A stretch of 64,000 nucleotides of DNA from Flavobacteriales bacterium (GTDB lineage: Bacteria > Bacteroidota > Bacteroidia > Flavobacteriales > BACL11): the NCBI GenBank assembly GCA_045561575.1, contig JBJKXM010000004.1, forward strand, positions 44,924-108,923. The letters run 5' to 3'. Below are positions 353-49,671 of the stretch, piece by piece. Position 1 is the stretch's first letter. Every line of letters begins with the position of its first letter. A model generated the notes under the pieces. It searched no databases and was not told where the DNA came from. It worked only from the letters and a program-made list of their open reading frames with translations. The position numbers and the translations under genes are program-made.

Positions 353-823
353 ATGAAAAAATCAACATCAACTATTATTGCTTTTACTCTAGCATTTTTT
401 ATTTCTTTATCAATTAATGCTCAAACAACTGCAACTAATGTTAAAAAAACTACAGAGTCTGAATGTGTAGATAAAAAAGAAAAAGAATGTACAAAATCAA
501 ACAAAGGATTTAGTTTCTCTTCAAAGAAGACTAAATCTGAAAGCTGTTGTAAGTCTAAAAATAATAAATCAGCACAAAAAACATCTTGTGATTCAAAAGC
601 ACAAAAAACATCTTGTGATTCAAAAGCACAAAAAACATCTTGTGATTCAAAAGCACAAAATGCATCAAATAGTAAAGCAAAACAATCTTCTTGCTGTTCA
701 AAAACAGCAAAAGCTTCAAACAGAGATGCTGCTGCCAAAGTAAGACAAGCAATCGCAAAAGGTGAAATAACTCCTGAACAAGGAAATGCTAGATTAGCAA
801 GACTTCAAAAAAGTAATAAATAA
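353..823 (+). CDS. secreted Cys/Lys/Ser-rich repeat protein, function unknown
   Basis: N-terminal signal peptide (MKKSTSTIIAFTLAFFISLSINAQ). The mature part is low-complexity with 9 Cys, including two CC pairs and three perfect KTSCDSKAQ repeats. The C-terminus is helical-looking (AAAKVRQAIAKGEITPEQGNARLARLQ). A promoter box lies upstream and a strong terminator downstream. Confidence 0.6.
   Translation: MKKSTSTIIAFTLAFFISLSINAQTTATNVKKTTESECVDKKEKECTKSNKGFSFSSKKTKSESCCKSKNNKSAQKTSCDSKAQKTSCDSKAQKTSCDSKAQNASNSKAKQSSCCSKTAKASNRDAAAKVRQAIAKGEITPEQGNARLARLQKSNK
572..660 (+). repeat. perfect 27-bp in-frame tandem repeat, 3 full copies plus an 8-nt partial copy
   Basis: The unit gcacaaaaaacatcttgtgattcaaaa occurs at 572-598, 599-625 and 626-652, followed by gcacaaaa at 653-660. 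It encodes the (A)QKTSCDSK(A) repeats. Confidence 0.95.
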
Positions 824-3094: not shown

Positions 3095-3517
3095 TTAATT
3101 GTATTCTTTAATATTGATTATCCTATTATTATCATCTAATTTCATATTAATTTTAAGATAATTAGTTGGAAGCAAATCTTCTAGTTTTTCAGGCCACTCA
3201 ATAAAACAATAAGAAGAACTAAAAAAATACTCTTCATATCCTATATCAAATACCTCATCTTGTTTTTCAGTTCTATAAAAATCAAAATGATATATTATGT
3301 CATCATTTACATTTGAGTACTGATTTACAATAGAAAAAGTTGGGCTAGAGACAACATCAGAAACCCCTAACTCTTTACAAAACTTTTTAATAAATGATGT
3401 TTTGCCTACCCCCATTTCACCATAAAAAAGAAAAACCTTTGAATTATATTTCTCAAGAATCATTTTTGCAACAGCACACAATTCTTCTTCTTGTTTTATA
3501 ATAAATTTTAAACTCAT
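3095..3517 (-). CDS. tsaE: tRNA t6A37 biosynthesis ATPase TsaE
   Basis: P-loop GEMGVGKTSFIK, followed by SPTFSIVNQY and HFDFYR, in a ~140-aa protein. Confidence 0.9.
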   Translation of the reverse strand: MSLKFIIKQEEELCAVAKMILEKYNSKVFLFYGEMGVGKTSFIKKFCKELGVSDVVSSPTFSIVNQYSNVNDDIIYHFDFYRTEKQDEVFDIGYEEYFFSSSYCFIEWPEKLEDLLPTNYLKINMKLDDNNRIINIKEYN

Positions 3518-5059
3518 TATTTTGGTTCCATAACAATTACGGGAAGCAACATCTCCTCTAAAGAAACTCCACCGTGTTGATAAGTATTTTTATAAAATTA
3601 ACGTATTTATTATAGTTATTCTGATATACAAAATACAAATCTTCTTTTGCAAAGATATACTTACTACTTATATTTTGTTTGGGCAAGAAAAATTTTAAAG
3701 GATCATTACTTCAAATACCTCATTTGAATTATAATTTAAATTTTTACCTTGTTTGTATCTTAAATTTGGATTTACTCGCTTATCCCCTATCACTTTTGAT
3801 GGTTTATTTACATTTATTGTACCATGATCAGTTGTTATGACAATTTTAGACCCCTGTTCTGCAATTTTAGAGATAATATCATAAAGTGGTGAATGCTCAA
3901 ACCAAGAAGATGTTAGCGATCTATAAGCAGAGTCATCATCTGCTAATTCCTTTATTACTTTCATCTCTGTTCTTGCATGTGAAAGCATATCAACAAAATT
4001 ATAAACTATAACATTTAAAGCATTATGTTTCATATTTTCAATTTTATTAATAACCTTTCTTCCAAAATCAATATTTGTGATCTTAGTGTAGGTAGATTTA
4101 AATTGATTCAAATTACATCTACTTAAATTATCAATTAAAAAATCTTCTTCAAACATATTTTTTCCGCCTTCATCCTCATCATTTAGCCATTTATCCGGAT
4201 ATTTATTTGCAATTTCTGACGGTTTTAAACCTGAAAAAATAGAGTTCCTGGAGTATTGTGTAGAAGTAGGCAATATACTCATATACATATCATCATCGAT
4301 GATTTTAAATTTTTCTAATACCTTACCTTCAATAACTTTCCACTGATCATATCTTAAGTTATCTATTAATAATAAGTAAACAGGTTTTTCATTACTTAAA
4401 TAAGGAAAAACTTTTTTTTTCAATAAATTATGAGATAATAAAGGGGAATTATTTTCATTAATCCAGTTTTCATAATTTTTAGATATAAATCTGAAAAATT
4501 GAGAATTAGCCTCTGTTTTTTGCATTGAAATAATTTCATCAATGCTATTATCATTTGATTTCTCAAGTTCTAACTCCCAAAAAATTATTCTTTTATACAC
4601 ATCACACCACTCTTCAAATGACAAATTAGAAGATAGTTGTAGAGAAATATTTCTAAATTCTTGCTGATAACCTCTAGCAATCTTTTCATCTACTAATCTT
4701 GATGAATCTAAATTCTTTTTTATAGATAAAAGTATTTGACTAGGATTGACAGGTTTAATTAAATAATCAGATATTTTAGACCCAATAGCTTCCTCCATTA
4801 TACTTTCTTCTTCACTTTTGGTAATCATAACAACTGGAATATTATTAAACTTATCTTTAATTATATATAAAGTTTCAAGCCCAGATAAACCAGGCATATT
4901 CTCATCTAAAAAAATAAGATTAAATGAATTATTTTCAATGATTTCAAGAGCTTCATCACCACTTTTGGCGGTAGTTAAATTATATCCTTTTGACTGTAAA
5001 TAAATTACATGTGGTTTTAGTAATTCTATTTCATCATCTACCCAAAGTATATTATTCAT
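3517..5059 (-). pseudogene. porX: PorX-like T9SS response regulator (CheY receiver + PglZ/alkaline-phosphatase-like domain), interrupted by two 1-nt frameshifts
   Basis: The 454-aa ORF (3695-5059) has a receiver domain (ILWVDDE...LDENMPGLSG) and a PglZ-like body, but ends prematurely at ...NSNEVFEVMIL. A second frame continues with NDPLKFFLPKQNISSKYIFAKEDLYFVYQNNYNKYVNF. A third frame continues with YKNTYQHGGVSLEEMLLPVIVMEPK*, with its stop at 3517-3519 overlapping the tsaE ATG as TAATG. Restoring 2 nt gives about 514 aa, the usual PorX length. Confidence 0.8.
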
Positions 5060-18650: not shown

Positions 18651-19361
18651 GTGAAAACTTACAACAAAATTTTTCTGTTAATCATTTTCTTATGTTTTAG
18701 TCTATTTTCTTATGGGCAAAGACATAAAAAACCACAAAATTTACCTAGATATGACTTCAAAAAAATTCATTTTGGATTTACTCTAGGTATAAATTCTCTT
18801 AACTTTAATTTAGCAAAAAATGATGATTTTTTAAATAATGATAGTCTTTTGACTTTGCTTGCAAGTGATCAAAAAGGATTTAATTTAGGAATTGTTTCTA
18901 ATTTTAGACTTGGAAAATATACTGATTTAAGATTTATACCAACTCTTGTTTTTGGTGAAAGAATTTTAAACTATCAATTTAACAATCAAAGCAACTTATC
19001 TTTAACTGATAAAAGGATTGAATCAACATTAATTGATTTTCCAGTATCATTAAAATATAAATCAGCTAGATATAATAATTTCCGTACATATGTAATGTGT
19101 GGAGTAAAATATAGTCTAGATATAGCCTCTCAATCGGAAATTGATGATGAAGGTCAAGAATTAGTCAAGTTAAATAACCATGATTTCATGATTGAAGGGG
19201 GCTTTGGCATAGATTTTTATTTACAGTATTTTAAATTTTCTCCACAAATCAAAATATCTCACGGTATTATTAATATTTTATCAAAAGACAAAACATTATA
19301 CACTCAAACTATTGATAATTTAAAAACAAATAGTTGGATGATTTCATTTACATTTGAATAA
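18651..19361 (+). CDS. porT: PorT/SprT-family outer-membrane beta-barrel protein (T9SS-associated)
   Basis: GTG start, signal peptide, a 236-aa beta-barrel-like sequence ending ...WMISFTFE, and the conserved position immediately after ubiE seen in Bacteroidota. Confidence 0.6.
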   Translation: MKTYNKIFLLIIFLCFSLFSYGQRHKKPQNLPRYDFKKIHFGFTLGINSLNFNLAKNDDFLNNDSLLTLLASDQKGFNLGIVSNFRLGKYTDLRFIPTLVFGERILNYQFNNQSNLSLTDKRIESTLIDFPVSLKYKSARYNNFRTYVMCGVKYSLDIASQSEIDDEGQELVKLNNHDFMIEGGFGIDFYLQYFKFSPQIKISHGIINILSKDKTLYTQTIDNLKTNSWMISFTFE

Positions 19362-27517: not shown

Positions 27518-27881
27518 GGGGCTGACTGGATTTGACTGCAAGTTGAGTTGACTAATAAGCATGTCGAGCTTTGTGTTTTGGCTCGTTAAAATTAAAATTC
27601 AATTTTTTAATTGGCGAAAATAATTACGCTTTAGCTGCCTAATTTATAAATTAGAATAGCTTTTGTCTCTTTTAAAGGAACTCCTGAATCCTTTAATCTT
27701 GAGGCATCATTAATATCAGGATAGTTTATTTAGAGCTTCGATAAATGAACGAAACTTTTGAAGATAAGGATAAGAATTGGGTGCTATTTACCAGTCTTAT
27801 TTCGAAAATTAACAGTAGATATGCATGTAGAAAATTATTTGACACCTTGTTAGGACGTGGGTTCGAAACCCACCAGCTCCA
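27518..27881 (+). ncRNA. ssrA: tmRNA (SsrA)
   Basis: The 5' end ggggctgactggatttgac pairs with the 3' acceptor ...cagctcc-a. The T-arm is gtgggttcgaaacccac. The internal tag frame ggc gaa aat aat tac gct tta gct gcc taa (27613-27642) encodes GENNYALAA*. The terminal CCA is not fully encoded. Confidence 0.95.
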
Positions 27882-27914
27882 CAAGAAATAAACCCACTCA
27901 ATTGAGTGGGTTTT
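27879..27914 (+). repeat. direct repeat copy 1 (tmRNA 3' end plus terminator)
   Basis: ccacaagaaataaacccactcaattgagtgggtttt matches 28463-28498 at 30 of 36 positions in an ungapped alignment. Confidence 0.75.
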
Positions 27915-31171: not shown

Positions 31172-33448
31172 TTATTTAATAATTATTCTTTTTTCTATCC
31201 TGCCATCATCAAAATGGAAAAACAAAGTTTTATTAAGCTTGAACAACACTTCTTTTCCAAGAACATCTGTTATTTTAACGACACTTCTTTTATCGAAATC
31301 ATAATAATTATAAGACGATGTAATATCAAGAGTAAAATTGATGTTTGTAATACTATCACATCCAATTGAATTTGTTAATATTATAGAATAATCTCCTGAA
31401 ACATATAACACTATTCCGTTCCAACTTATACTACTATTTGAAACTAAGGTATCATATGAATATGAATCATAAATACAACTTCCATCATCATAATTAGCAA
31501 ATTGATTAAAATTACAGGCAATTGGATCAGTACATCCAGTAATCCCATAGCAATTACCTAGTAAATTATTATCTATCCATACAAGTCTAAATTCTATCCA
31601 ATTTTTCAAAAAACCTATTTCATCTTGGTATGTATTTCCAACATAAAAGTTTGGCCAAACATAAGTATCTAAAATATCCCATTTCTGAAAATTTCTATCA
31701 CTTGCATCTTCTAAATAAAAAACAACACTATCTATAAAATTAAAAATAGAATCTTTATGAAAGCTATTAGCTCTTAAATACTCCCATCTACATTTTAATT
31801 TATTTACATAATTGGAGTCCTCTAAAAGCCTTTCAAACCAAAACGGATTGTTCCATGCACATCCCTGCCCTCCATCATCGACTTCCCATCCATTAGTTAG
31901 TCCTCCATTACAAAAATTAGCATTTCCAAAAGCTAAATTATAGTCCCAAAAAGGTCCCATGGTTAGCTTTCCTGCATTATCATCTCTATCCTTATACATG
32001 TAAGTACTAAGTCTATATCCATCAATATTTCTAGAAAGTTCATTAATTATATATAAGTCAATAAAAGAATTTACATCAATATACTTTGAATAGCCTATAA
32101 GTGTATCATTAAAGTTAGGGCCTGATAAAGCATTTTCAAAACTATCTACAAAGTTTTCTATGTAATTTTTTTGAATAGGATGTAATGCTGGTCCCTCAGG
32201 ATAATGATATTGAATAAAAATTGAACCTCCTCCTAAATTTGGGAAATTTGATTGCCAATTACTTCCTCCTGAACCAGTGAATTTATCAATCTTAACTATG
32301 TAACCTCCTGTTAAACTATCACCATTTAAATCATCTGAATCTAAAGCTGCAATATCAACTCTGTTTTTATCTCTTTTTATTTTTTCCATTAAAATATAAA
32401 CTCCTTGATAATCTCCATTTATTACTAATTCACAATAAATAGTTCTTGAACAATAATTCCCCATCTTACGCCCCAAATCAAAAGTTAAGAAATTACGCAT
32501 TAGACTCTTATCTGTATATGGAGCATATAAAATCCAATCATTTTCAATAGGCATGCCTAATAATGACACATTATTGTTATTACCTAAAGAATCTTGAGTT
32601 TCAAAACCATATGACTTTTTTGGAAAAGATTGAGAAGAACTTCCTCTGTATTCAATACTAATTTTACCGTTATAATCATTAAAAGTATCATTAATTGAAT
32701 TTAAATTTCCAAAACCATTGTCAATTATTCCCATATCACAAATTATTCTAGCACTATCTAATATGTTTTGATTATTTGTATTTATCATTACAATAGGAAG
32801 GTTAGATGATGTGAAAATTAATGGTGGATTAAACCATGAATGAGGGGAGGAATAATTTAAGTTAGTTGATGTTATACCTAAAGATATAAAAACACGAGCT
32901 GTTAAATCTGATGAAGAAATATCTTGATTATGAATCTGGACAGATAGTACATTAACTCCTTGTTTTAAAATAGTATCTATTAACTGTGGATCAATAATAA
33001 ATTGATCCGGAGAACCTCCTTGATACATTTGTGCCTCTTTATAAGTATTTGCAACTTGATTATATGCTGGATGATCCCCATAAATACCAATATTTGACCT
33101 TGCTATTTCAACATCATTTAAATAAGCAACAAACGCATCATCAAAATCAATATCCAAAACTAAAGAACCAATTTCTGATGTATCAATAATTGAAAACTCA
33201 TTTCTTAGATATAAAGAAATTGTTGGGTTTATAATTGTAGAATCATCTCCATCTCCATACCCAAAACCACCTTGCCCATTTTGCCACAGAGAATCATCAT
33301 AAGAAATAGTTCTCCAATTTGAATCTGGCTCACTTATTCCAACATAATATTTCCAAAATTCACTCTCAAAAACTACTGTTTCCCAATGATCTACAGATTG
33401 AGATAAAAGAGTAAAAGGAAAAAAAACAAGAAATAATAATTTTTTCAC
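31172..33448 (-). CDS. secreted CotH-family (atypical kinase fold) protein with a T9SS-type C-terminal tail
   Basis: CotH-like core (LYAPYTDKSLMRNFLTFDLGRKMG, GVYILMEKIKRDKNRVDI, GPFWDYNLAFGNA). I prefer the GTG start at 33448, which gives a classic signal peptide (MKKLLFLVFFPFTLLSQS), over the track's TTG at 33478. The C-terminal tail is ...ITDVLGKEV...FHFDDGRIEKRIIIK. Confidence 0.7.
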   Translation of the reverse strand: MKKLLFLVFFPFTLLSQSVDHWETVVFESEFWKYYVGISEPDSNWRTISYDDSLWQNGQGGFGYGDGDDSTIINPTISLYLRNEFSIIDTSEIGSLVLDIDFDDAFVAYLNDVEIARSNIGIYGDHPAYNQVANTYKEAQMYQGGSPDQFIIDPQLIDTILKQGVNVLSVQIHNQDISSSDLTARVFISLGITSTNLNYSSPHSWFNPPLIFTSSNLPIVMINTNNQNILDSARIICDMGIIDNGFGNLNSINDTFNDYNGKISIEYRGSSSQSFPKKSYGFETQDSLGNNNNVSLLGMPIENDWILYAPYTDKSLMRNFLTFDLGRKMGNYCSRTIYCELVINGDYQGVYILMEKIKRDKNRVDIAALDSDDLNGDSLTGGYIVKIDKFTGSGGSNWQSNFPNLGGGSIFIQYHYPEGPALHPIQKNYIENFVDSFENALSGPNFNDTLIGYSKYIDVNSFIDLYIINELSRNIDGYRLSTYMYKDRDDNAGKLTMGPFWDYNLAFGNANFCNGGLTNGWEVDDGGQGCAWNNPFWFERLLEDSNYVNKLKCRWEYLRANSFHKDSIFNFIDSVVFYLEDASDRNFQKWDILDTYVWPNFYVGNTYQDEIGFLKNWIEFRLVWIDNNLLGNCYGITGCTDPIACNFNQFANYDDGSCIYDSYSYDTLVSNSSISWNGIVLYVSGDYSIILTNSIGCDSITNINFTLDITSSYNYYDFDKRSVVKITDVLGKEVLFKLNKTLFFHFDDGRIEKRIIIK

Positions 33449-33529
33449 TATACGAAGATATAAATAATGAAAAAACAACAGATAAGTAATTATATCTATT
33501 TGATTTATTTAATTTTGAGTAAAAAAATT

Positions 33530-33892: not shown

Positions 33893-34957
33893 CTACATTT
33901 CATCATAATCAACATAAATACTTTCTGAAGTTGGATGAGCTTGACAAGTTAATATAAAGCCTTCTTCAACATCGTCTTCAGATAATGAATAATTCAAATC
34001 CATTGAAGCTGTTCCCTCAATAACTTTTGCTTTACACACAGAACATACTCCACCTTTACATGAAAAAGGAACATCAGCACCTGCCTCAGTTGCTGCATCT
34101 AAAATTGATTGTCCACTTGTAGATAAAGTAAATTCAAAATCATCACCATCAACACATACTGTAACATTTGAAATAAGATCTGATTGGGAGTAATTTTCCT
34201 TTTTCTCATCGCTATTTTTAGGGGCAGAAAAAAGTTCAAATTTGATTTTACTACTATCAATTTCAATTAACTCTAAAAATTCGCTAACATTTTCAATCAT
34301 ATCCCCAGGACCACACATTAAAAATAAATTAGCATTTTTTAGATGAATATTTGTATCAAATAGATCTTTGAGTAATTCTCCAGAAATACGACCATTTAAG
34401 GAGCCATCAATTTTTTCCTTGGAATAAAAGTTGTAAAGATAGAAACGTTCATTGTATTTTTCTTTAAATAAATCTATTTCTTCAGAGTACATTGTAGATG
34501 AAAATGTTCTATTACCATAAATTAAGGTAAATGTACTTGAAGGTTCATTTGTTAATACGTTTTTAATCATTGACATGACAGGAGTAATTCCGCTACCCGC
34601 ACAGATTCCAACATAATGATTACTATTTTTCGTGTCAATATCAATAAAAAAGTTGCCTGTTGGAGGCATAATATTTAAAGTATCTCCTTGATTTAAATTT
34701 GAGGTTAAAAATGTAGACATTTTACCATTTTGAACAAGCTTCACTCCTATTTCAATGCCAGATTCAGGAGATGAGGAAATAGAATAAGATCTTCTTACCA
34801 TTTCATCATTAATTTTTTGTTCAACAGTAATGTATTGACCAGATTTAAATTTGAAAGTATCTGTGTCAACAGATGACAAATCAATTTCAATATTGACGGC
34901 ATCTTCAGTTAAATTTCTTATAGATTTTACAGGAACAGAAAAAAATTTATTCATCAT
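33893..34957 (-). CDS. paaE: 1,2-phenylacetyl-CoA epoxidase reductase subunit (FNR-like domain plus plant-type 2Fe-2S)
   Basis: FAD/NAD-binding motifs (RSYSISS, GAGSGITPVMS) and the C-terminal ferredoxin motif C.GG.CS.CKAK. It is divergent from paaABCD. Confidence 0.85.
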   Translation of the reverse strand: MMNKFFSVPVKSIRNLTEDAVNIEIDLSSVDTDTFKFKSGQYITVEQKINDEMVRRSYSISSSPESGIEIGVKLVQNGKMSTFLTSNLNQGDTLNIMPPTGNFFIDIDTKNSNHYVGICAGSGITPVMSMIKNVLTNEPSSTFTLIYGNRTFSSTMYSEEIDLFKEKYNERFYLYNFYSKEKIDGSLNGRISGELLKDLFDTNIHLKNANLFLMCGPGDMIENVSEFLELIEIDSSKIKFELFSAPKNSDEKKENYSQSDLISNVTVCVDGDDFEFTLSTSGQSILDAATEAGADVPFSCKGGVCSVCKAKVIEGTASMDLNYSLSEDDVEEGFILTCQAHPTSESIYVDYDEM

Positions 34958-34966
34958 TTTTTTTTA

Positions 34967-34974
34967 CAAAAATA
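34967..34974 (-). promoter_or_regulatory. -7 box (TAnnTTTG on the minus strand) for paaE
   Basis: caaaaata on the plus strand reads tatttttg on the minus strand. It lies 9 nt upstream of the ATG at 34957, implying a very short leader. Confidence 0.35.
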
Positions 34975-35035
34975 AAATATTGAAAACTTTTTTTTGCTGA
35001 AAAAATATTAAATTGATAAAATGACATATTTTCAA

Positions 35036-35043
35036 TAAATTTG
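35036..35043 (+). promoter_or_regulatory. -7 box (TAnnTTTG) for paaABCD
   Basis: taaatttg lies 19 nt upstream of the paaA ATG. A TTG at 35013-15 sits at about the spacing expected for a -33 element. Confidence 0.5.
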
Positions 35044-35062
35044 CAAAAACACAATATCTCCA

Positions 35063-35983
35063 ATGGAAGAAGCAATATTTCAAGAAAAAATTAACGCAGA
35101 AAAAAAAATTGAACCAAAAGACTGGATGCCCGAAGGCTATAGAAGTCATTTAATCAGACAAATTTCTCAACATGCTCATTCAGAAATCATTGGAATGCAA
35201 CCTGAAGGAAATTGGATTACAAGAGCTCCTTCTTTAAGAGCTAAAATGATATTACTTGCAAAAGTTCAAGATGAAGCTGGTCATGGCCTTTATCTTTACA
35301 GTGCATGTGAAACTCTAGGTATAACAAGAGAAGAATTAAACCAGCAACTACACGAAGGAAAAGCAAAATATTCAAGTATTTTTAACTATCCTACTTTAAG
35401 TTGGGCAGATATGGGTGCAATTGGCTGGTTAGTTGATGGTGCAGCTATTGTGAACCAAGTTTCTCTACAAAAGACTTCATATGGGCCATATTCAAGAGGA
35501 ATGATAAAAATATGTAAAGAAGAAAGCTTTCATCAAAGACAAGGTTATGAAATTATGGCTCAAATGGCTAATGGTACTAAAGAACAAAAAGAAATGGCTC
35601 AAGATGCTCTTAACAGATTCTGGTGGCCATCAATAATGATGTTTGGTCCTCATGATGCTGATTCTCCAAGAACTGGAAATGCCATGAAATGGAAAATAAA
35701 ACGTAAAACAAATGACGAGTTGAGGCAAAGTTTTATTGACAAAACTGTTGAGCAAGCTGAATTAATTGGACTTAAAATTCCAGATCCTGACTTAAAATGG
35801 AATGAAGAAAAAGGTTCATATGACTTTGGGGAAATTGATTGGGAGGAATTTTGGAATGTTGTTAATGGAAATGGACCTTGTAATGAACAAAGGCTAGACC
35901 ATCATAAAAAAGCACATAATGAAGGAGAATGGGTAAGAGATGCAGCTAGAGCTTATTCACAAAAACAAACTACAAATGAATAA
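35063..35983 (+). CDS. paaA: 1,2-phenylacetyl-CoA epoxidase catalytic subunit
   Basis: Di-iron ligand regions ([28 protein letters not shown]) in a 306-aa protein. Confidence 0.9.
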
Positions 35984-36260
35984 AGCTGCTACAATTTGGG
36001 AAGTATTTATACAAAGTAAAAACGGGCTTGCTCACAAACATGTTGGAAATGTTCATGCTGAAGATAAAGAAATGGCACTTCAAAATGCTAGAGATTTATA
36101 TACAAGAAGAAATGAAGGGTCATGTATTTGGGTAGTTAAATCAGAGCATATTGTATCTTCTGTTCCTGAAGATGAAGAATCATTTTTTGACCCTTCAAAT
36201 GATAAGGTTTATAGGCATCCAACCTTCTATAATCTTCCTGATGGAGTCAAACACATTTAG
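35976..36260 (+). CDS. paaB: 1,2-phenylacetyl-CoA epoxidase subunit B
   Basis: [21 protein letters not shown]...[19 protein letters not shown]...[16 protein letters not shown] aligns end to end with the ~95-aa PaaB family. I prefer the ATG at 35976 over 35940. Confidence 0.9.
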
Positions 36261-37007
36261 ATGCAAGATTTAGAAAAATACATTTTAAGAATAGCAGACA
36301 GCTCATTAATTCTTTCCCACAGATTATCTGAATGGTGCTCAAAAGGTCCAACACTAGAAGAAGATATTGCTATTTCAAACATCTCTCTTGATTTACTAGG
36401 CCGAGCTAATTCACTTTTAGAGTACTGCGCAAAAGTTAATGGAAATAAGTCAGCTGATGACTTGGCTTTCAAAAGAGATGAAAGAGAATTTTATAACTTT
36501 CAAATTTGCGAGCTTGAAAATGGTCATTTTGGAGACACAATTATTAGACAATTTTTATTTGATAGTTATGCCTCTTTATTTTTTAAGAAATTAAGTGAAA
36601 GTAAAGATGAAACATTAAGTGCAATTGCATTAAAATCCATTAAAGAAATAAATTATCATTTAAGACATTCTAGTAATTGGGTTATTAGGCTTGGAGATGG
36701 AACTAAATTAAGTAAAGAAAAAATTCAAGATTCATTAAATAAAATTTGGAAGTATACTGGAGAATTTTTTGAAATGGATGAATTAGATAATGAAATGCTA
36801 AAAAAACAAATTGGAGTAGATAATAAAGAACTTAAAAATCAATGGGATATAATTGTTAATGAAACTTTAGAAAAAGCTAAGTTAAATAGACCTAAAGATG
36901 GTTTCATGATGACAGGAAGTAAAAAAGGTATTCATACAGAACTTTTAGGTAAAATCCTTAGTGAGATGCAATATATCCCAAGAGCATATCCTGATGCAAA
37001 ATGGTAA
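36261..37007 (+). CDS. paaC: 1,2-phenylacetyl-CoA epoxidase subunit C
   Basis: The sequence LRIADSSLILSHRLSEWCSKGPTLEEDIAISNISLDLLG in a 248-aa protein, in the position between paaB and paaD. Confidence 0.85.
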   Translation: MQDLEKYILRIADSSLILSHRLSEWCSKGPTLEEDIAISNISLDLLGRANSLLEYCAKVNGNKSADDLAFKRDEREFYNFQICELENGHFGDTIIRQFLFDSYASLFFKKLSESKDETLSAIALKSIKEINYHLRHSSNWVIRLGDGTKLSKEKIQDSLNKIWKYTGEFFEMDELDNEMLKKQIGVDNKELKNQWDIIVNETLEKAKLNRPKDGFMMTGSKKGIHTELLGKILSEMQYIPRAYPDAKW

Positions 37008-37446
37008 TATAGATAAAATTTGGAATATATTAGAATCTGTTCCTGACCCCGAAATACCTGTTATTTCAGTTGTTGAGCTTGGTGTTATAAGAAAAGTTGA
37101 ATTTTTTGAAAATAACTATATTATTTCTGTTACTCCAACATATTCAGGTTGCCCTGCCGTAAAGACATTCCAAGATGATATAAAAGCTCAACTAAGAGAA
37201 AATAACATTCATAATTTTCATCTTGAAATTGTCTATAAACCAGCATGGACTACTGATTGGATGACAAGTAAAACAAAACAAAAATTAAAAGACTATGGCA
37301 TATCTCCACCAGAGAAAACCATTGAATGTCCACAATGCAATTCAACTAATATTGAGCTGATTAGTGAATTTGGTGCAACTGCTTGTAAATCTATGCATAA
37401 ATGTGTTGATTGTTTAGAACCTTTTGAACATTTCAAATGTATATAG
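36994..37446 (+). CDS. paaD: phenylacetyl-CoA epoxidase assembly subunit (SUF/MIP18-like)
   Basis: VPDPEIPVISVVELGVIR, TPTYSGCPA and a C-terminal Cys cluster (CPQC...C..C). I prefer the ATG at 36994 over the GTG at 36961. Confidence 0.8.
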   Translation: MQNGNIDKIWNILESVPDPEIPVISVVELGVIRKVEFFENNYIISVTPTYSGCPAVKTFQDDIKAQLRENNIHNFHLEIVYKPAWTTDWMTSKTKQKLKDYGISPPEKTIECPQCNSTNIELISEFGATACKSMHKCVDCLEPFEHFKCI

Positions 37447-37497
37447 GAACGTTTTAAGGCTCATTTATTATTTTTACAAAGGATTAAATCATACGAA

Positions 37498-38268
37498 ATG
37501 ATTATAAAAGAAATAAAAAATCAAATAGCTTTTCTAAAATTTGATCGACCCGATAAATACCATTCATTTATTAAAGAGATGGCTTTTGATTTACAAGAAA
37601 AGTTAGATGAATGTAAAAATGATGATAACATAAGATGTATTGTGATAACAGCTGAAGGTAAAGCTTTTTGTGCTGGTCAAGATTTGTCTGAAGCTACTAA
37701 TCCTAATGGTCCTTCATTAGAAACAATTGTCAATACTCATTATAATCCAATAGTAAGAAAAATTCGCAGTATTGAAAAACCAATAATTGCAGCTGTTAAT
37801 GGAGTCGCAGCTGGTGCAGGTGCATCTATAGCACTATGTTGCGATATAGTATTAGCAAAAAAAAGTGCTGTTTTTGTTCAAGCCTTTAGTAAAATTGGTT
37901 TAATTCCAGATAGCGCTGCTACTTTTTTTCTGCCTAGAATTATAGGATTGCAAAAAGCTGCGGGATTAATGATGACAGCAGAACCAATTTCAGCTGAAGA
38001 AGCTTGCAAAATAGGAATGATATATAAAGCTTTTGATGATGACAAGTTTGAAAGTGAGGTGCAAAAACTTGCTGAAAAACTTAGTCAAATGCCTACAAAA
38101 GGGATTGGATTAACAAAAAGACTACTTAATAAATCATTAACGAGTAATCTAAACGAACAGCTAGAAAAAGAATTAGATTATCAAATCATTGCTGGACAAA
38201 CAAATGATTTCAAAGAAGGTGTTAGTGCATTTTTAGAAAAAAGAAAACCAAATTTTAAAGGAAATTAG
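37498..38268 (+). CDS. paaG: crotonase-family enzyme, PaaG-like (1,2-epoxyphenylacetyl-CoA isomerase)
   Basis: ITAEGKAFCAGQDL and AAVNGVAAGAGASIAL motifs plus operon position. The split between PaaG and PaaF roles is inferred from gene order only. Confidence 0.6.
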   Translation: MIIKEIKNQIAFLKFDRPDKYHSFIKEMAFDLQEKLDECKNDDNIRCIVITAEGKAFCAGQDLSEATNPNGPSLETIVNTHYNPIVRKIRSIEKPIIAAVNGVAAGAGASIALCCDIVLAKKSAVFVQAFSKIGLIPDSAATFFLPRIIGLQKAAGLMMTAEPISAEEACKIGMIYKAFDDDKFESEVQKLAEKLSQMPTKGIGLTKRLLNKSLTSNLNEQLEKELDYQIIAGQTNDFKEGVSAFLEKRKPNFKGN

Positions 38269-39420
38269 ATGACAATAGGAATTATAGGCTCAGGAACAAT
38301 GGGTATTAGTATTGCTCATTTTACTTCATTAAAAAATCATAAAACAGTAGTTTATGATTCATCCAAAAAAGCATTAACTAAATCTCAAGAAGGTTTAGAT
38401 AAATTATTAGACAAACTTCATGCTAAGGATAAATATTCAAAAGAAGATATTAATAAAATAAAAAGCAATCTAAAGTTTACAAACAAAATAGAAGATCTAA
38501 AAAATTCTGAACTATTAATAGAAGCAATAATTGAAAATTTAGAAATTAAAAAAGAGGTTTTCTCTGAAATTGAAAAAATAGTAAGTAAAGAATGTATTAT
38601 TGCCTCAAATACCTCATCATTATCAATTACGGCACTTGCAAGTTCATTAAATTTAAATAATAGATTCATTGGACTACACTTTTTCAATCCTGCAAATCTA
38701 ATGCCACTAGTTGAGGTTATTCCAGCAATTCAAACATCTGAAAAAACAATCAAGAATTCTCAAGACCTTTTAAGAGAAATGGGTAAGGTTGTTGTTACTG
38801 CAAAAGATACACCAGGTTTTATTGTAAACAGAGTAGCTAGACCTTTTTACGGAGAAGCAATAAGAATATATGAAGAAGGTATTGCCAATTTTGCTACAAT
38901 AGATTGGGCATTAAAAGAATTTGGAGGGTTTAAAATGGGTCCATTTGAACTTATGGATTTTATTGGTAATGACATTAACTATACAGTTACAGAAACCGTT
39001 TTTAAAGAATTTTATTTTGACCCAAGATACAAGCCTTCATTTACCCAAAAAAAATTAAAAGAAGCTGGATATTATGGTAGAAAAAGTGGAATAGGTTTTT
39101 ATAATTATAAAAATGAAGAACCAAAGGAAATAAACAAAAACAGAGAGTTAGCTAAAAAAATAGTTTTAAGAATTTTATCAATGTTAATTAATGAAGCTGC
39201 AGATGCACTTTATCTAAACATAGCTTCCAAAGAAGATATTGATTTAGCTATGACAAAAGGTGTTAATTATCCAAAAGGTTTACTTTATTGGGCTGACGAA
39301 ATTGGAATAGAAACAGTACATACAACTTTAGTTTCACTTAAAAATAAATACAGTGAAGATAGATACAGGCCGTCCCCAATATTCCAAAATATGTTAAATC
39401 AAAACAAAAAATTTTATTAA
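38269..39420 (+). CDS. paaH: 3-hydroxyacyl-CoA dehydrogenase (PaaH-like)
   Basis: IGIIGSGTMG, ASNTSSLSIT, HFFNPA and PGFIVNR motifs. Confidence 0.8.
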   Translation: MTIGIIGSGTMGISIAHFTSLKNHKTVVYDSSKKALTKSQEGLDKLLDKLHAKDKYSKEDINKIKSNLKFTNKIEDLKNSELLIEAIIENLEIKKEVFSEIEKIVSKECIIASNTSSLSITALASSLNLNNRFIGLHFFNPANLMPLVEVIPAIQTSEKTIKNSQDLLREMGKVVVTAKDTPGFIVNRVARPFYGEAIRIYEEGIANFATIDWALKEFGGFKMGPFELMDFIGNDINYTVTETVFKEFYFDPRYKPSFTQKKLKEAGYYGRKSGIGFYNYKNEEPKEINKNRELAKKIVLRILSMLINEAADALYLNIASKEDIDLAMTKGVNYPKGLLYWADEIGIETVHTTLVSLKNKYSEDRYRPSPIFQNMLNQNKKFY

Positions 39421-39830
39421 TGTTATCTCCCTCTGATATAGTTAATAAAATGATGAGCAAGGATGCTTTTAGTAAGTGGCTTGGAATTAAAATATTAAAA
39501 ATAGAAAAAGGATATTGTCAACTGGAAATGAAAATTTCTGAAAGTATGACTAATGGATTTCAAATAGCACATGGAGGAATATGTTATTCATTGGCAGATA
39601 GTGCACTTGCTTTCGCTTCTAACTCTCATGGTAAAATGGCATTATCAATAGAAACATCTATATCTCACACCAAAAAAGTAAAGCTAAATGATACTTTAAT
39701 AGCTGAAACAGAAGAATTAAATTTAAATACAAAAACTGGATTGTATAATATTAAAATTAAAAATCAGAACTCGGAGGAAATAGCCTTCTTTAAAGGAACA
39801 GTATATTTTTCTGATAAGATTTGGAAATAA
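39420..39830 (+). CDS. paaI: hotdog-fold hydroxyphenylacetyl-CoA thioesterase
   Basis: NGFQIAHGGICYSLADSA motif in a 136-aa protein within the paa operon. Confidence 0.8.
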   Translation: MLSPSDIVNKMMSKDAFSKWLGIKILKIEKGYCQLEMKISESMTNGFQIAHGGICYSLADSALAFASNSHGKMALSIETSISHTKKVKLNDTLIAETEELNLNTKTGLYNIKIKNQNSEEIAFFKGTVYFSDKIWK

Positions 39831-39838
39831 AAAATTAA

Positions 39839-41041
39839 ATGAACACATATATAATTGATGCTATACGAACTCCAATAGGAAATTTTGGAGGAACATTAAA
39901 AGATGTAAGGACTGATGATCTCGCTGCAATTCCAATAAAAGAACTAATAAAGAGAACAAAGATTAATCCTGAAAAAATTAATGACGTTATTTTGGGTTGT
40001 GCAAATCAGGCTGGAGAGGATAATAGAAATATTGCAAGAATGGCATTATTATTGGCTGGACTACCTTTTAGTGTTCCAGGAGAAACAGTAAATAGACTAT
40101 GTGCATCTGGAATGTCAGCTATCATTAATGCTCATAGAGCAATTAAATCTGGAGATGGGGATCTTTTTATTGCTGGAGGAATAGAAAACATGACAAGAGG
40201 ACCATGGGTTTTTTCAAAAGCTTCAAAAGCATTTGGAAGAGATTCTCAAATGTTTGATTCATCTTTTGGATGGCGTTTTATAAATCCCAAGATGAAAGAA
40301 TTATATGGTACCGATGGAATGGGAACAACTGCTGAGAATCTTGCTGAAAAATTTAATATTTCAAGAGAAGATCAAGATCTTTTTGCATATAATTCACAAA
40401 AAAAAGCTTTTAGTGCCCAATCTTCTGGCAGATTTAGTGAAGAAATTGTAACTGTTAGCATTCCACAAAGAAAAAAAGAACCAATTCTCTTTAAAGATGA
40501 TGAATTTATTAAAGGAAATACATCTCTCGAAGTACTTGCTAAACTTAGAACAGCATTTAAAAAAGAAGGAGGAACAGTAACTGCTGGTAATGCTTCAGGA
40601 CTAAATGATGGGGCTGCTGCTATGTTATTAGCTTCAGATAAAGGAATTAAAGAAAATAACCTCTCTCCTATGGCAAAAATTTTAAGTTCAGCAGTTATTG
40701 GTGTTGAACCTAGAATAATGGGGATAGGTCCAGTTGAGGCTTCAAATATTGCTTTAAAAAGAGCTGGATTATCATTAGATGATATAGATATAATTGAGTT
40801 AAATGAAGCATTCTCTGCACAGGCTTTAGCTTGTATAAGATCTTGGGGATTAAAAGATGATGATTCTAGAATTAATCCAAATGGGGGTGCAATAGCACTT
40901 GGACATCCATTGGGGGTAAGTGGTACAAGAATAGTTCAAACAGCTGCGCTTGAGCTTCAAAAACAAAATAAAAAATATGCATTAATTACAATGTGTATCG
41001 GAGTAGGTCAAGGATATGCAACTGTAATAGAAAAAGTATAA
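39839..41041 (+). CDS. paaJ: 3-oxoadipyl-CoA/3-oxo-5,6-dehydrosuberyl-CoA thiolase
   Basis: Thiolase motifs NRLCASGMSA, NEAFSAQ, GGAIALGHPLG.SG and CIGVGQG. Confidence 0.9.
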   Translation: MNTYIIDAIRTPIGNFGGTLKDVRTDDLAAIPIKELIKRTKINPEKINDVILGCANQAGEDNRNIARMALLLAGLPFSVPGETVNRLCASGMSAIINAHRAIKSGDGDLFIAGGIENMTRGPWVFSKASKAFGRDSQMFDSSFGWRFINPKMKELYGTDGMGTTAENLAEKFNISREDQDLFAYNSQKKAFSAQSSGRFSEEIVTVSIPQRKKEPILFKDDEFIKGNTSLEVLAKLRTAFKKEGGTVTAGNASGLNDGAAAMLLASDKGIKENNLSPMAKILSSAVIGVEPRIMGIGPVEASNIALKRAGLSLDDIDIIELNEAFSAQALACIRSWGLKDDDSRINPNGGAIALGHPLGVSGTRIVQTAALELQKQNKKYALITMCIGVGQGYATVIEKV

Positions 41042-41042
41042 T

Positions 41043-41636
41043 ATGATTTATGAATTTAATGGGTATACTCCTGTAATTGATCCATCTTCTTATATTCACA
41101 AAGAAGCTACTATTATTGGTAACGTAATAATTGGTAAAAACGTTTATGTAGGCCCAGGGGCATCAATAAGGGGTGATTGGGGTAAAATTACTATTATGGA
41201 TGGATGTAACGTACAAGATAATTGTACTATTCATATTTTTCCTGGAAAGGATGTAATACTTGAAGAAAATGCTCACATTGGACATGGAGCAATAATTCAT
41301 GGAAGTCATATTGGAAAAAATACTTTAATTGGAATGAACTCAGTAATAATGGACGATGTAATAATTGGTGAAGAATGTATTATTGGAGCTTTATGTTTTG
41401 TTAAAGGTGAAATGAAAATTCCTAAAAGAAAAATTGTTGTAGGAAACCCTGCAGTAATAAAAGGAGAAGTTACTGATAATATGCTTGAATGGAAAAAACA
41501 AGGCACTAAACTTTATCAAAAATTACCTGATGAATGTAAAAATTTAATGTCAGAATGTAATCCACTTAGCAAAAAAGAAAAAAACAGAAAAGAAAAGCAA
41601 AAAATATCTTTTAAAACTTGGAAAAAAACAAAATGA
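41043..41636 (+). CDS. paaY: hexapeptide-repeat (gamma-carbonic-anhydrase-like) protein PaaY
   Basis: Left-handed beta-helix repeats and operon position. It has a Lys-rich C-terminal tail. Confidence 0.75.
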   Translation: MIYEFNGYTPVIDPSSYIHKEATIIGNVIIGKNVYVGPGASIRGDWGKITIMDGCNVQDNCTIHIFPGKDVILEENAHIGHGAIIHGSHIGKNTLIGMNSVIMDDVIIGEECIIGALCFVKGEMKIPKRKIVVGNPAVIKGEVTDNMLEWKKQGTKLYQKLPDECKNLMSECNPLSKKEKNRKEKQKISFKTWKKTK

Positions 41637-43672
41637 AAAATTACGAGAATTATGTATTAGGAAGTTGGATTAAAGGAGATGGAGATTTTAAATCACTACA
41701 TAATGCAATTACAGGAAAAATCATAGGACAAGCTTCAACCAAAGGACTTGATTTTAAAGATATTTTAAATTATGCAAGAAACGTTGGTGGACCTAATTTA
41801 AGAAAAATGACTTTTCAAGAAAGAGGTTTAATGCTTAAAAAGCTTGCTCTTCATTTACATGCAAAAAAAAATCTATTTTATCCAATTAGCTATTTAAGCG
41901 GTGCAACAAAAATTGACTCATGGATTGATATTGAAGGAGGTATAGGTAATCTTTTTACTAATGCTTCTTTAAGAAGACAATTTCCAGATCTCCCATTTCA
42001 CGTTGAAGGAAATGCTGCAGGACTTTCCAAAAATGGATCTTTTATTGGTCACCACATCATGGTTCCTAAGCAGGGAGCTGCTATACATATAAATGCATTT
42101 AATTTCCCAATTTGGGGAATGCTTGAGAAGATAGCTGTGAATTTAATGGCAGGAATGCCAGCAATCATTAAGCCTGCAACTATAACATGCTATTTAACTA
42201 ATGTTATGTTTGAAGAAATAATAAATTCAAAAATTCTTCCTGAAGGAAGCTTACAACTTATTTGTGGAAGTGCAAGAGGAATTCTTGATCATATTTCATC
42301 AGAAGATGTTGTTACATTTACCGGAAGCGCATCTACAGGAAAAAAATTAAAATCTCACCCAAATATTGTTGATAAAGCTGTTCCATTTAACATGGAAGCA
42401 GATTCTTTAAACTGCTCAGTTCTTGGAAAAGATTCTATTCCAGGGACAGCTGATTTTGATATTTTTATAAAAGAGGTTTTAAAAGAAATGACCGTAAAAG
42501 CTGGTCAAAAATGTACAGCAATTAGAAGAATTATTGTTCCAAGTGAATTAGTGAATGATGTAAATAAAGCACTATCATTAAAACTATCTAAAACTAGTAT
42601 TGGAGATCCTCAAGTTGAAGGTGTAAGAATGGGAAGTCTAGCTGGTAAAGAACAAGTTGAAGAAGTATCTGAAAAAATTAATCAACTAAGCAATTCTCAA
42701 AAAATCATATTCCAAAAAAATCTTGAGCTAGTTGGAGTAGAAAATGAAGATGGCGCTTTTATATCTCCTACTCTATTTTTAAATGAAAAACCATTTCAAA
42801 ATACAGATTGTCATGATATTGAGGCATTTGGTCCAGTAGCTACTATAATGCCCTATGATAATTTAGATGAAGCTATAGAACTTAGTAGGATGGGGAAAGG
42901 TTCATTAGTATCTTCAATTATTACAAATGATATGAAAACTGCTAATGAATTTGTTTTAGGTGCTGCCAGCTTGCATGGAAGAATTTTAGTGTTAAATGAA
43001 TCTTGTGCAAAAGAAAGTACTGGTCATGGATCTCCAATGCCACTACTTACCCATGGTGGTCCTGGACGAGCAGGAGGAGGTGAAGAAATGGGGGGTATAA
43101 GGGGAATAAAACATTATCTTCAAAGAACAGCTATTCAGGGTCATCCAACAACAATAACTGCAATAACAAAACAATATCAAGTAGGTGCAAAACAAAATAC
43201 TAAAGGTCCACATGTGTTTTACAAACATTTTGATGAAATAGAAATAGGAGACACTGTAATAACTGAAAAACATACTGTAACTCTTGATGATATTGAAAAT
43301 TTTGCAGATCTAAGTGGAGATAAGTTTTATGCACATATGGATGAAAATTCACTTGAAGACACTATCTTTACGGAAAGAGTTGCTCATGGATATTTTATCA
43401 TGTCTAAAGCAGCTGGATTATTTGTTAAGCCTGAAAAGGGTCCGGTTCTTTTAAATTATGGAATTGATGAATGTAGATTTACCAAACCTGTATACCCTGG
43501 AATGACAATTGGAGTAAAATTTACAGCAAAAGAAAAAATAGTGCAAGAAAAAAAAGAAGATGAAAATTTTGAAAAAGGAATTGTAAAGTTTTTAGTTGAT
43601 GTTTATGATGATGAAAATGAAACCGTAATGCTTGCAACTATATTAACAATGGTTAAAAAAAATAAAATATGA
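41633..43672 (+). CDS. paaZ: bifunctional oxepin-CoA hydrolase / 3-oxo-5,6-dehydrosuberyl-CoA semialdehyde dehydrogenase
   Basis: N-terminal ALDH domain (catalytic GQKCTAIRR) and a C-terminal MaoC hotdog domain (FADLSGDKFYAHMD). The ATG at 41633 overlaps the paaY stop as ATGA. Confidence 0.9.
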   Translation: MKNYENYVLGSWIKGDGDFKSLHNAITGKIIGQASTKGLDFKDILNYARNVGGPNLRKMTFQERGLMLKKLALHLHAKKNLFYPISYLSGATKIDSWIDIEGGIGNLFTNASLRRQFPDLPFHVEGNAAGLSKNGSFIGHHIMVPKQGAAIHINAFNFPIWGMLEKIAVNLMAGMPAIIKPATITCYLTNVMFEEIINSKILPEGSLQLICGSARGILDHISSEDVVTFTGSASTGKKLKSHPNIVDKAVPFNMEADSLNCSVLGKDSIPGTADFDIFIKEVLKEMTVKAGQKCTAIRRIIVPSELVNDVNKALSLKLSKTSIGDPQVEGVRMGSLAGKEQVEEVSEKINQLSNSQKIIFQKNLELVGVENEDGAFISPTLFLNEKPFQNTDCHDIEAFGPVATIMPYDNLDEAIELSRMGKGSLVSSIITNDMKTANEFVLGAASLHGRILVLNESCAKESTGHGSPMPLLTHGGPGRAGGGEEMGGIRGIKHYLQRTAIQGHPTTITAITKQYQVGAKQNTKGPHVFYKHFDEIEIGDTVITEKHTVTLDDIENFADLSGDKFYAHMDENSLEDTIFTERVAHGYFIMSKAAGLFVKPEKGPVLLNYGIDECRFTKPVYPGMTIGVKFTAKEKIVQEKKEDENFEKGIVKFLVDVYDDENETVMLATILTMVKKNKI

Positions 43673-47288: not shown

Positions 47289-49671
47289 ATGAAAAAAACA
47301 CACTTTATTTTCTTATTGTTAACCTTATTATGTTACTACAGTTATGGTCAAAAAAATTACACCATTAGCGGATATGTTCAAGAATCTGAAAGTGGTGAAA
47401 ATTTAATTGGAGTATCTATTTACGATAAAGAAACATTTAAAGGTACAGTAACTAATCAATACGGATTCTACTCACTAACCTTAGAAGAAGGAAATTATGA
47501 AATTATCTATTCTTTTATAGGTCTAGAATCGACAACTAAAAAGGTTAACCTAAGCAAAAATTTAAGAATCAACATTTCTCTTGAGAGTAATGCTATCATT
47601 ACTGAAGAAGTAATAGTTACAGGAGAAAAACTTGACAAAAACGTAAGTAGTTCAAAAATGAGTCAAGTCAAAATTGAAGTAAATAACATCAAACAACTTC
47701 CTGTTATTTTAGGTGAAGTAGATGTATTAAAATCTGCTCAATTATTACCAGGAATCACATCAAATGGAGAGGGAAGTTCAGGATTATATGTAAGAGGCGG
47801 AGGACCTGATCAAAATCTTATTCTTTTAGATGAAGCGGTTGTTTACAATGCCTCGCATTTGTTTGGCTTCTTTTCTGTCTTCAATGCAGATGCAATTAAG
47901 GATATAAACATAATTAAGAGGAGGAATGCCTGCAGAATATGGAGGACGACTATCATCAGTTTTAGATATAACAATGAATGATGGAAATAATAAAAAATAT
48001 CAGGCAGATGGAGGTATTGGATTACTTTCATCTAGATTAACTTTACAAGGGCCTATTCAAAAAGAAAAAAGCTCGTTTATTGTTTCAGCAAGAAGAACAT
48101 ATATTGATGTACTATCAAAGCCTTTTCTTAACAGAAAAGACCCTGAAACTGGAGAACCTAATGCATTTGCCGGATCAGGATACTTCTATGATCTAACAAC
48201 TAAAATTAACTATAGATTATCTGATAAAGACAGATTATATCTAAGTGGATATTTTGGAAGAGATGTTTTCAGTTTTGCCAATGCAGACAATGGTTTTGCT
48301 ATTGAAATTCCATGGGGAAATGCTACTGGATCATTAAGATGGAATCATTTATTTAATGATAAATTATTCATGAACACATCTGTAATTTTCAGTGATTATA
48401 GATTTGAATTTAATCTTGCTCAAAGTGAATTTGAATTCAAAATATTTTCAGGAATTAATGATTGGAATACAAAAGTTGATTTTTTATATCAACCAAATCA
48501 AAGACATACAATTAAATTTGGAACCAACTATACATATCATGTCTTTACTCCTGGAAATGCAACAGGGCGATCTGGAGATGTAGAATTTGCACCAGATGAG
48601 ATATTTAGACAATACTCAAATGAAGGTGCCTTATATTTTTCTGATGATTTTGAATTAAGTGATGATATTAAAATTAATGCTGGTTTGAGGTATTCATCAT
48701 TTCAACACAGAGTAGATATTAATTTATTAAGATATGTTTCAAATGATTTAACTTTTAGTTCAGATAATTACAGAAATATTGAACCTAGATTTTCTCTTAG
48801 ATATAAACTAAATCCAACAAGTTCAATTAAAACTTCTTACACAGAAAACTATCAATATATTCATCTTGCATCTACTTCCTCTGTTAGTTTACCAACTGAC
48901 CTTTGGGTTCCAAGTTCTACAGCTATTAAACCTAAATTCTCTAAGCAGTACGCAATTGGATACTTTAAGAACTTTAAGGAAAATATGTATGAGACTTCAT
49001 TAGAAGCTTATTACAAGGAAATGACTAATTTAATTGAATATAAAGAAGGTTTTTTACCTGAAGACAATACAAATCAAAGTAGTGACAATTCTTTTACATT
49101 TGGTGATGGAGACTCTTATGGAATTGAATTATTACTTAAAAAAAATCAAGGAAAAACAACGGGTTGGATTGGTTATACATTATCAAAAACAACTAGATAT
49201 TTTGATGAAGTAAATAATGGAATTGAATTTCCAGCAAAATATGATAGGAGACATGATTTATCCATTACTGCAACTCATAAATTATCAAAAGCATGGGTAT
49301 TGAGTGGAGTTTTTGTTTATGCAACAGGAAATGCTATAACTCTTCCTACAGAAAGATATGTTATTGGTGGTGATGTTTATACCCAATTTACATCAAGAAA
49401 TGGATATAGAATGGATCCATACCATCGTATGGATATTGGTGCAACTTACACACCTTCAAAAAAGAAGAAAAAGAAGTTTAAATCAACATGGAATTTTTCT
49501 ATCTATAATGTATACTCAAGAAAAAACCCATACTTTATTTATTTTGCTCTAGAAGGTTTAGAAGAAAACGGTGAAAATCAAAATATCCAAAACGGAAATG
49601 TTGAACCTAAAGCATACCAAGTTTCTATTTTCCCAATATTACCGTCCGTAACATGGAACTTTAATTTTTAA
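47289..49671 (+). pseudogene. TonB-dependent receptor (CarboxypepD_reg-like N-domain + plug + barrel) split by a +1 frameshift near 47918
   Basis: ORF 47289-47981 carries the signal peptide, the carboxypeptidase-regulatory-like domain and the start of the plug, and ends in the out-of-frame sequence ...NIIKRRNACRIW. ORF 47926-49671 begins within the conserved plug motif, (G)GMPAEYGGRLSSVLDI, and ends ...TWNFNF. Removing 1 nt at attaag|a|ggaggaatg restores IIKGGMPAEYGG. Confidence 0.8.

Follow-up and report, generated by a model that had tools for sequence, protein, structure and literature searches.

The gene for a PorX-like T9SS regulator is broken in the 64-kb stretch of a Flavobacteriales MAG contig that was analysed here (the window). 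The question is whether the organism has lost this regulator, or whether it makes a normal PorX and only the assembled sequence is at fault. A preliminary description, made from the letters of the window, had offered both readings. We combined three-frame translation, profile and structure searches and nucleotide alignment to relatives with a screen of the other genes of the window.

A PorX gene read in three frames

Direct reading and three-frame translation showed that the minus-strand ORF at 3695-5059 encodes 454 aa, ends in ...NSNEVFEVMIL* and has its stop codon at 3695-3697. Translation of the 178 nt between this stop and tsaE revealed that the protein goes on in two other frames. The second frame reads SNDPLKFFLPKQNISSKYIFAKEDLYFVYQNNYNKYVNF..., and the third reads YKNTYQHGGVSLEEMLLPVIVMEPK* up to a TAA at 3519-3517 that overlaps the ATG of tsaE at 3517-3515. 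The ORF stop, both continuation strings and the TAATG junction given in the preliminary description were thus reproduced exactly. The sole Rfam match in the window is a tmRNA, and therefore no RNA element accounts for the 178-nt "intergenic" stretch.

Joining the three pieces yields a protein of 514 aa, and the same 514-aa PorX is obtained when a single base is inserted at each of two places, 3707/3708 and the A4 run at 3594-3597. The full frame that had been called recoverable was therefore recovered, and its product aligns end to end to solved PorX structures. As assembled, the locus has no single uninterrupted ORF of ~514-520 codons; it consists of the 454-aa ORF and two out-of-frame pieces. 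The two 1-nt deletions are 113 nt apart and do not compensate each other, and the last 64 PorX codons are out of frame in the MAG assembly.

Segment 1 (3708-5059, minus strand) keeps the original frame and encodes residues 1 to ~450, comprising the CheY-like receiver, the helical linker and most of the PglZ domain, as defined by the ORF list, translation, Pfam and alignment to 7PV7 and 8TED. Frameshift site 1, where one base is missing, lies at 3707-3708 (minus strand) according to the alignments to relatives. Segment 2 (3598-3707, minus strand) is shifted by one base and encodes residues ~452-487, NDPLKFFLPKQNISSKYIFAKEDLYFVYQNNYNKYVNF, as seen by translation and gap-free alignment to PorX structures. 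Frameshift site 2 (3594-3597, minus strand) is followed by segment 3 (3517-3593, minus strand), which is shifted by two bases and encodes residues ~488-514 (YKNTYQHGGVSLEEMLLPVIVMEPK*; translation and alignment). The adjoining tsaE (3095-3517, minus strand) is intact, with 140 aa covering positions 2-131 of the 135 in the NCBIfam profile TIGR00150. The overlap of its start with the ancestral PorX stop in TAATG is common to all relatives, with the same arrangement in L001-L007.

Both lesions were placed by nucleotide alignment to the orthologous genes of relatives that are 82-98% identical, against which the window PorX has exactly two 1-nt gaps. At site 1 the coding strand reads GAAGT-AATGAT in the window and GAAGTTAATGAT in the closest relatives (L001, L089, L095 and L108); other relatives read GAAGTTGATGAT (L097) or GAAATGAATGA (L002/L003). 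A Val codon lacks its third base there (TT->T). At site 2 the plus-strand run at 3594-3597 is A4 in the window and A5 in the nucleotide-aligned relatives, that is, T4 versus T5 on the coding strand. The proposal of two single-base frameshifts that split a PorX-like T9SS regulator is thus borne out by translation and by the relatives' alignments, and both are 1-nt deletions. The first had been predicted near 3705-3707, which is close to the observed gap, but in an A-run and not in the Val codon where it lies; the second falls in one of the A/T-run candidates within the predicted 3560-3600.

The repaired 514-aa protein matches PorX of Porphyromonas gingivalis (7PV7) with E=1.7e-186 over residues 3-514, and PorX of F. 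johnsoniae with E=4.3e-186 (8TED) and E~1e-186 (8P6F, also full length). On these scores, the similarity is far beyond chance. Pfam assigns Response_reg to residues 4-113 (E=5e-24) and PglZ to residues 227-419 (E=8e-26), in agreement with the structure alignments and with the receiver-plus-PglZ identity first suggested for the ORF. The C-terminal part aligns to both 7PV7 and 8TED without gaps, and the translations of 3517-3694 are therefore similar to PorX C-termini, as had been supposed. The locus is an ordinary PorX orthologue with a CheY-like receiver, a three-helix bundle and a predicted PglZ/alkaline-phosphatase-like phosphodiesterase domain.

The metal-coordinating residues of PorX are D239, T272, D361, H365, D415, H416 and H500, and its conserved PglZ core residues include F481, G501, G502, E507 and P511 (PMC9757075). 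All metal-ligand and core residues named in that work are conserved in the window PorX by alignment. The phospho-acceptor D52, in the motif FLDENMPG, aligns with D58 of P. gingivalis PorX, and D233 and T267 align with D239 and T272 (the catalytic Thr). The D and H of DMLSH correspond to D361 and H365, those of TDHG to D415 and H416, and the H of QHGG to H500, which is encoded only in a shifted frame. The C-terminal HGG thus belongs to the PglZ metal site, as stated in the preliminary description. Since the equivalents of the Zn ligand H500 and of G501, G502, E507 and P511 all fall in the out-of-frame tail, a 454-aa product would be without this ligand and would miss the final core elements of its alkaline-phosphatase fold.

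P. gingivalis PorX (PGN_1019; PDB 7PV7/7PVA/7PVK) has the same three-part architecture and length as the window PorX, which keeps its D58, T272, D239, D361, H365, D415, H416 and H500; the two differ in that the frame of the window gene is broken twice, with the equivalents of H500, G501, G502, E507 and P511 out of frame. F. johnsoniae PorX (8TED, 8P6F) is alike in class (Flavobacteriia) and in domain boundaries (PMC10951265), whereas the window copy is frameshifted and has different neighbours, an HD hydrolase upstream and the overlapping tsaE downstream. Phosphodiesterase activity, phosphorylation-driven dimerisation and binding to PorL/GldL or SigP have been described for the P. gingivalis and F. 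johnsoniae proteins (PMC9757075, PMC10951265). Judged by its sequence, the locus belongs to the PorX family by descent, and as given in the assembly the gene is not intact. The one family feature that it lacks is an uninterrupted ORF; its architecture, neighbourhood and sequence are ordinary.

In the deposited record of the source MAG (locus-tag prefix ACJ0P8_, proteins MFL2572899-2572949), protein accessions run consecutively along the 133,655-bp contig. TsaE (MFL2572902) and the HD-domain protein (MFL2572903) lie on either side of PorX, and the record holds no PorX accession between these two numbers. This gap is consistent with a pseudogene flag in the source record.

PorX in relatives and substitutions beyond the frameshifts

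The lesions are absent from all relatives examined. Each of the best 100 listed PorX homologues is exactly 514 aa long, close to the ~515 aa that had been cited for PorX orthologues, and the listed members of the cluster at >=90% are 514-515 aa. Among 80 species-representative loci, which include the nearest SAGs and MAGs, 79 match PorX in a single frame, and the lone exception lies at a contig edge. Moreover, PorX is intact, within the same HD-PorX-TsaE synteny, on five independent metagenome contigs, which come from different samples and were built with different assemblers. The clade itself belongs to the marine Flavobacteriales, is AT-rich (28.7% GC) and uncultured, and has been recovered as SAGs and MAGs.

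The closest intact relatives are 96.7% (L001), 96.9% (L089), ~97.6% (L097), 97.9% (L108) and 98.4% (L095) identical to the window at the nucleotide level. Over 16.8 kb aligned with L095, the two PorX gaps are the only indels, and over 15.8 kb aligned with L096 there are no gaps. The junction k-mers at the frameshift alleles include TTTGAAGTAATGATCCTTTAAAATTTTTCTT and AAATACGTTAATTTTATAAAAATACTTATCA. The T4 variant of site 2 was not found in the public genome and metagenome contig collections, and a site-1 pattern accepting either state matched three metagenome contigs, all with the extra base. No same-strain contig (>99.5% identity) was found, the closest intact allele being 98.4% identical. 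Exact look-ups of the truncated 454-aa PorX, the repaired 514-aa PorX and the repaired 793-aa receptor described below returned no match, and such null exact-protein look-ups are uninformative on whether the same strain occurs in other assemblies. The exact TsaE and HD proteins are present in the protein collection as NCBI-only entries, although contig look-ups that used them as neighbours gave no match. Because no relative shares the two deletions, they most likely reflect either an error in the consensus or a private mutation of very recent date, and not an evolutionary loss of the regulator.

The substitutions in the tail bear on how long the frame could have been broken. In the repaired frame, the codons after the shifts differ from those of a 97%-identical relative by 6 synonymous changes and 1 non-synonymous change, and more distant relatives show the same synonymous bias past the first shift. 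Polarisation against three close relatives assigned changes in five tail codons to the window itself: 4 are synonymous, one of them a Leu->Leu change in two steps, and 1 is a conservative V->L that is present in other clade members too. Upstream of the shifts, the same polarisation gave 14 synonymous versus 5 non-synonymous changes. The tail substitutions are thus almost all synonymous in the repaired frame, and carry no decay signal. The ancestral PorX frame was therefore under selection in the window's own lineage until essentially the present, and the deletions are either artefacts or extremely recent.

Five independent short-read contigs of close relatives (L089, L095, L096, L103 and L108) end in or beside PorX/tsaE, between window 3300 and 4600 (at 3300, 3852, 4203, 4353 and 4582). 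This clustering hints at strain microdiversity that breaks assemblies there and could also disturb the MAG consensus; the contigs were picked for carrying neighbouring genes, so the cluster may be an ascertainment bias.

Other frame-breaking indels in the window

A screen of all ~65 ORFs for splits, comparing gene length with syntenic relatives and considering profile coverage, identified one further broken gene besides PorX. This gene (47289-49671, plus strand) encodes a TonB-dependent receptor with CarboxypepD_reg, Plug and barrel domains, and is split into a 230-aa ORF (47289-47981) and a 581-aa ORF (47926-49671), such that Pfam places Plug and barrel on separate ORFs. Alignment to L091 (98.6% identical) revealed one inserted nucleotide, a G at 47918 that is not part of a homopolymer; the window reads ATTAAGAGGAGG there versus ATTAA-AGGAGG. 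The repaired 793-aa receptor is 99% identical to an intact 794-aa protein, and the receptor is intact (793-794 aa) in relatives 93-99% identical, including L105 and L106, whose contigs have the identical downstream neighbour. The two halves were deposited as separate proteins (MFL2572946 and MFL2572947). A 597-kb ENA contig (P0402/L107) also carries a 230-aa receptor fragment; a shared frameshift was ruled out there, since that contig has an indel of its own at 47961.

Taken together, 2 of the ~65 genes in the 64-kb window are hit by three private frame-breaking indels, in a streamlined genome that is ~95% coding. The tmRNA or short spacers, most of which separate divergently transcribed genes, account for the remaining non-coding gaps. 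The widest gap without apparent coding sequence holds the tmRNA gene (27518-27884, plus strand), whose tag peptide is GENNYALAA. Two of the three indels lie within 113 nt of each other, which has P~0.01 under uniform placement. None of the three is in a long homopolymer, and ~140 runs of at least 5 nt (up to 9) have lengths unchanged between the window and close relatives.

L107 (ENA ERZ28548085, contig_14881_pilon, 597 kb) is a long-read, Pilon-polished contig of a 96.5%-identical strain, and serves as a comparison. In 20.7 kb, about 26 indel events were counted; most of them shorten A-runs of 5-8, and together they fragment at least eight genes. As in the window, single-base indels split conserved genes of the clade; however, the window has only 3 in 64 kb, a rate about 40 times lower, and none of these is in a long run. 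The truncated proteins of L107, such as 230-aa receptor and 243-aa AccD fragments, populate public clusters.

Two other length differences from relatives were also seen near the start of the window. At 336, in the intergenic sequence upstream of the ORF at 353-823 (plus strand), the window differs by 1 nt from L097 only (ATTG-AAC versus ATTGTAAC); this is probably a polymorphism or an error in L097, since L089 agrees with the window. Within that ORF, which encodes a 156-aa protein without a family match, an in-frame 27-nt segment at 571-597 is absent from L089 (96.9% identical) and resembles a tandem repeat of a AGCACAAAAAAC-containing unit. L109 also aligns poorly around this segment.

Origin of the lesions and other genes of the window

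On balance, we regard the PorX frameshifts as a probable consensus error. In this explanation, the two deletions would be consensus or assembly errors private to the MAG contig. It is supported by the privacy of the lesions, the lack of a decay signal, the third private frame-breaking indel and the occurrence of two indels within 113 nt. Two broken genes among ~65 is a high number for a densely coding, streamlined genome, and the clustering within 113 nt points to a local consensus problem. L107 is a precedent, in that indel-ridden assemblies exist for this clade.

Several observations count against an artefact. The indel at 47918 is an insertion outside any run, and single-nucleotide consensus deletions would be unusual artefacts in an Illumina-only MAG. 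By analogy, both broken genes fall into classes (T9SS control and outer-membrane receptors) in which real losses may be selected under phage in Flavobacterium. Moreover, since ~140 long runs are unchanged, the error profile is unlike a raw long-read or 454-type one. The suggestion of a sequencing or assembly error in the preliminary description is therefore favoured by the private lesions, the lack of relaxed selection and the third indel, but its qualifier "homopolymer-type" fits loosely: the sites are T5->T4 and TT->T, while the many longer runs are unchanged. Weighing an artefact against a very recent real mutation, we infer that the lesions are most probably errors; as such, the organism would most likely make a normal 514-aa PorX.

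The frameshifts may instead be real, very recent and private to the strain or population, with PorX freshly inactivated, which we consider possible though not the expected outcome. The second deletion would then have been tolerated because the tail was already dead, and selection would be expected to let through a second lesion in such a place, shortly after the first; the receptor would have been lost genuinely and in parallel, both genes being surface- or secretion-related. The avoidance of long homopolymers by the indels and the agreement of long runs with relatives, unlike typical platform error, also fit this explanation. However, the tail has no signal of relaxed selection, even among window-specific changes, so that both deletions would have to be near-simultaneous. 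Additionally, neither allele was seen in other assemblies, either in contig collections or in exact protein look-ups, PorX is intact in every relative examined, and two broken genes in ~65 are many for a genome that is streamlined and free-living.

Real losses of this kind are known from F. psychrophilum, in which phage-resistant isolates carry nonsense or frameshift mutations in T9SS and gliding genes, and lesions in gldK/L/M, sprA and gldD/H/J were reported for phage-exposed cultured isolates (PMC9804748). Those phage-selected mutants resemble the window in having frameshift or nonsense mutations in secretion and motility genes with a stop shortly after; they differ in being cultured isolates under phage, a context that is theirs, and PorX and TonB receptors are unmentioned in that work (PMC9804748). 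By this analogy, both the PorX and the receptor lesions might be real, the outcome of recent selection for loss of surface functions and conferring phage resistance, but we consider this unlikely. If real, the lesions would illustrate, on a small scale, how secretion and surface genes vary in nature by loss of function.

Loss at the level of the lineage, in which the T9SS regulator is being lost or rewired in a streamlined clade while PorT and cargo persist, is very improbable. It is true that PorX is broken in a window whose PorT/SprT equivalog (18651-19361) is complete, as the preliminary description stated, and whose T9SS cargo gene (59636-61312, Por_Secre_tail/TIGR04183) is intact. However, PorX is intact in strains 96-98.4% identical and in 79 of the 80 species genomes, it has 514 aa in the best 100 listed homologues, and synonymous changes dominate the whole gene. 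The proposed decay or rewiring of the regulator at this level is thus contradicted. The count of at least three T9SS cargo genes also has to be lowered to one detectable with Pfam and NCBIfam models: a lenient search with both collections found no further T9SS sorting domain in the CotH, PKD, M23 and small proteins of the window. PorY and PorK-N do not occur in the 64-kb window. Apparently among the earlier cargo count was the 768-aa protein at 31172-33478 (minus strand), in which about 270 N-terminal residues without annotation precede a complete CotH kinase domain (275-634) and no T9SS sorting domain was detected.

Programmed recoding, in which ribosome or RNA polymerase slips at both sites and full-length PorX is made, is excluded for practical purposes: site 2 (AAU UUU AUA) would let tRNA-Phe re-pair in the -1 frame on U-UUU, as read from the sequence, but site 1 (GAA GUA AUG) has no slippery sequence for -1 re-pairing and meets a stop five codons on, transcriptional slippage would need longer runs than those of 2-4 nt present here, the ribosome would have to shift to -1 twice in succession, and the shifts occur in no relative, all of which encode PorX in one frame.

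PorX is already well characterised, and finding it frameshifted in one MAG is routine, so the result carries little biological weight. Its main lesson is methodological, namely that gene loss should not be inferred from a single MAG: because strains 96-98% identical carry an intact PorX, claims of gene loss or "rewiring" from one MAG need read-level confirmation.

Two loci elsewhere in the window were also recorded. At 33893-43672 lies an apparently complete phenylacetate-catabolism cluster, kept in the relative L092, which comprises a PaaE-like reductase, PaaA, PaaB, PaaC, PaaD, an enoyl-CoA hydratase, a 3-hydroxyacyl-CoA dehydrogenase, a thioesterase, a thiolase, a hexapeptide transferase and a PaaZ-like Aldedh+MaoC fusion; it is notable for a small, AT-rich marine flavobacterial genome. 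The ORF at 51738-53645 (plus strand) encodes a RecQ-like helicase of 635 aa (634 aa in relatives), in which RecQ_Zn_bind (514-563) begins about 190 residues past Helicase_C (213-319), and this spacing suggests that a large insertion without annotation separates the helicase core from the zinc-binding domain.
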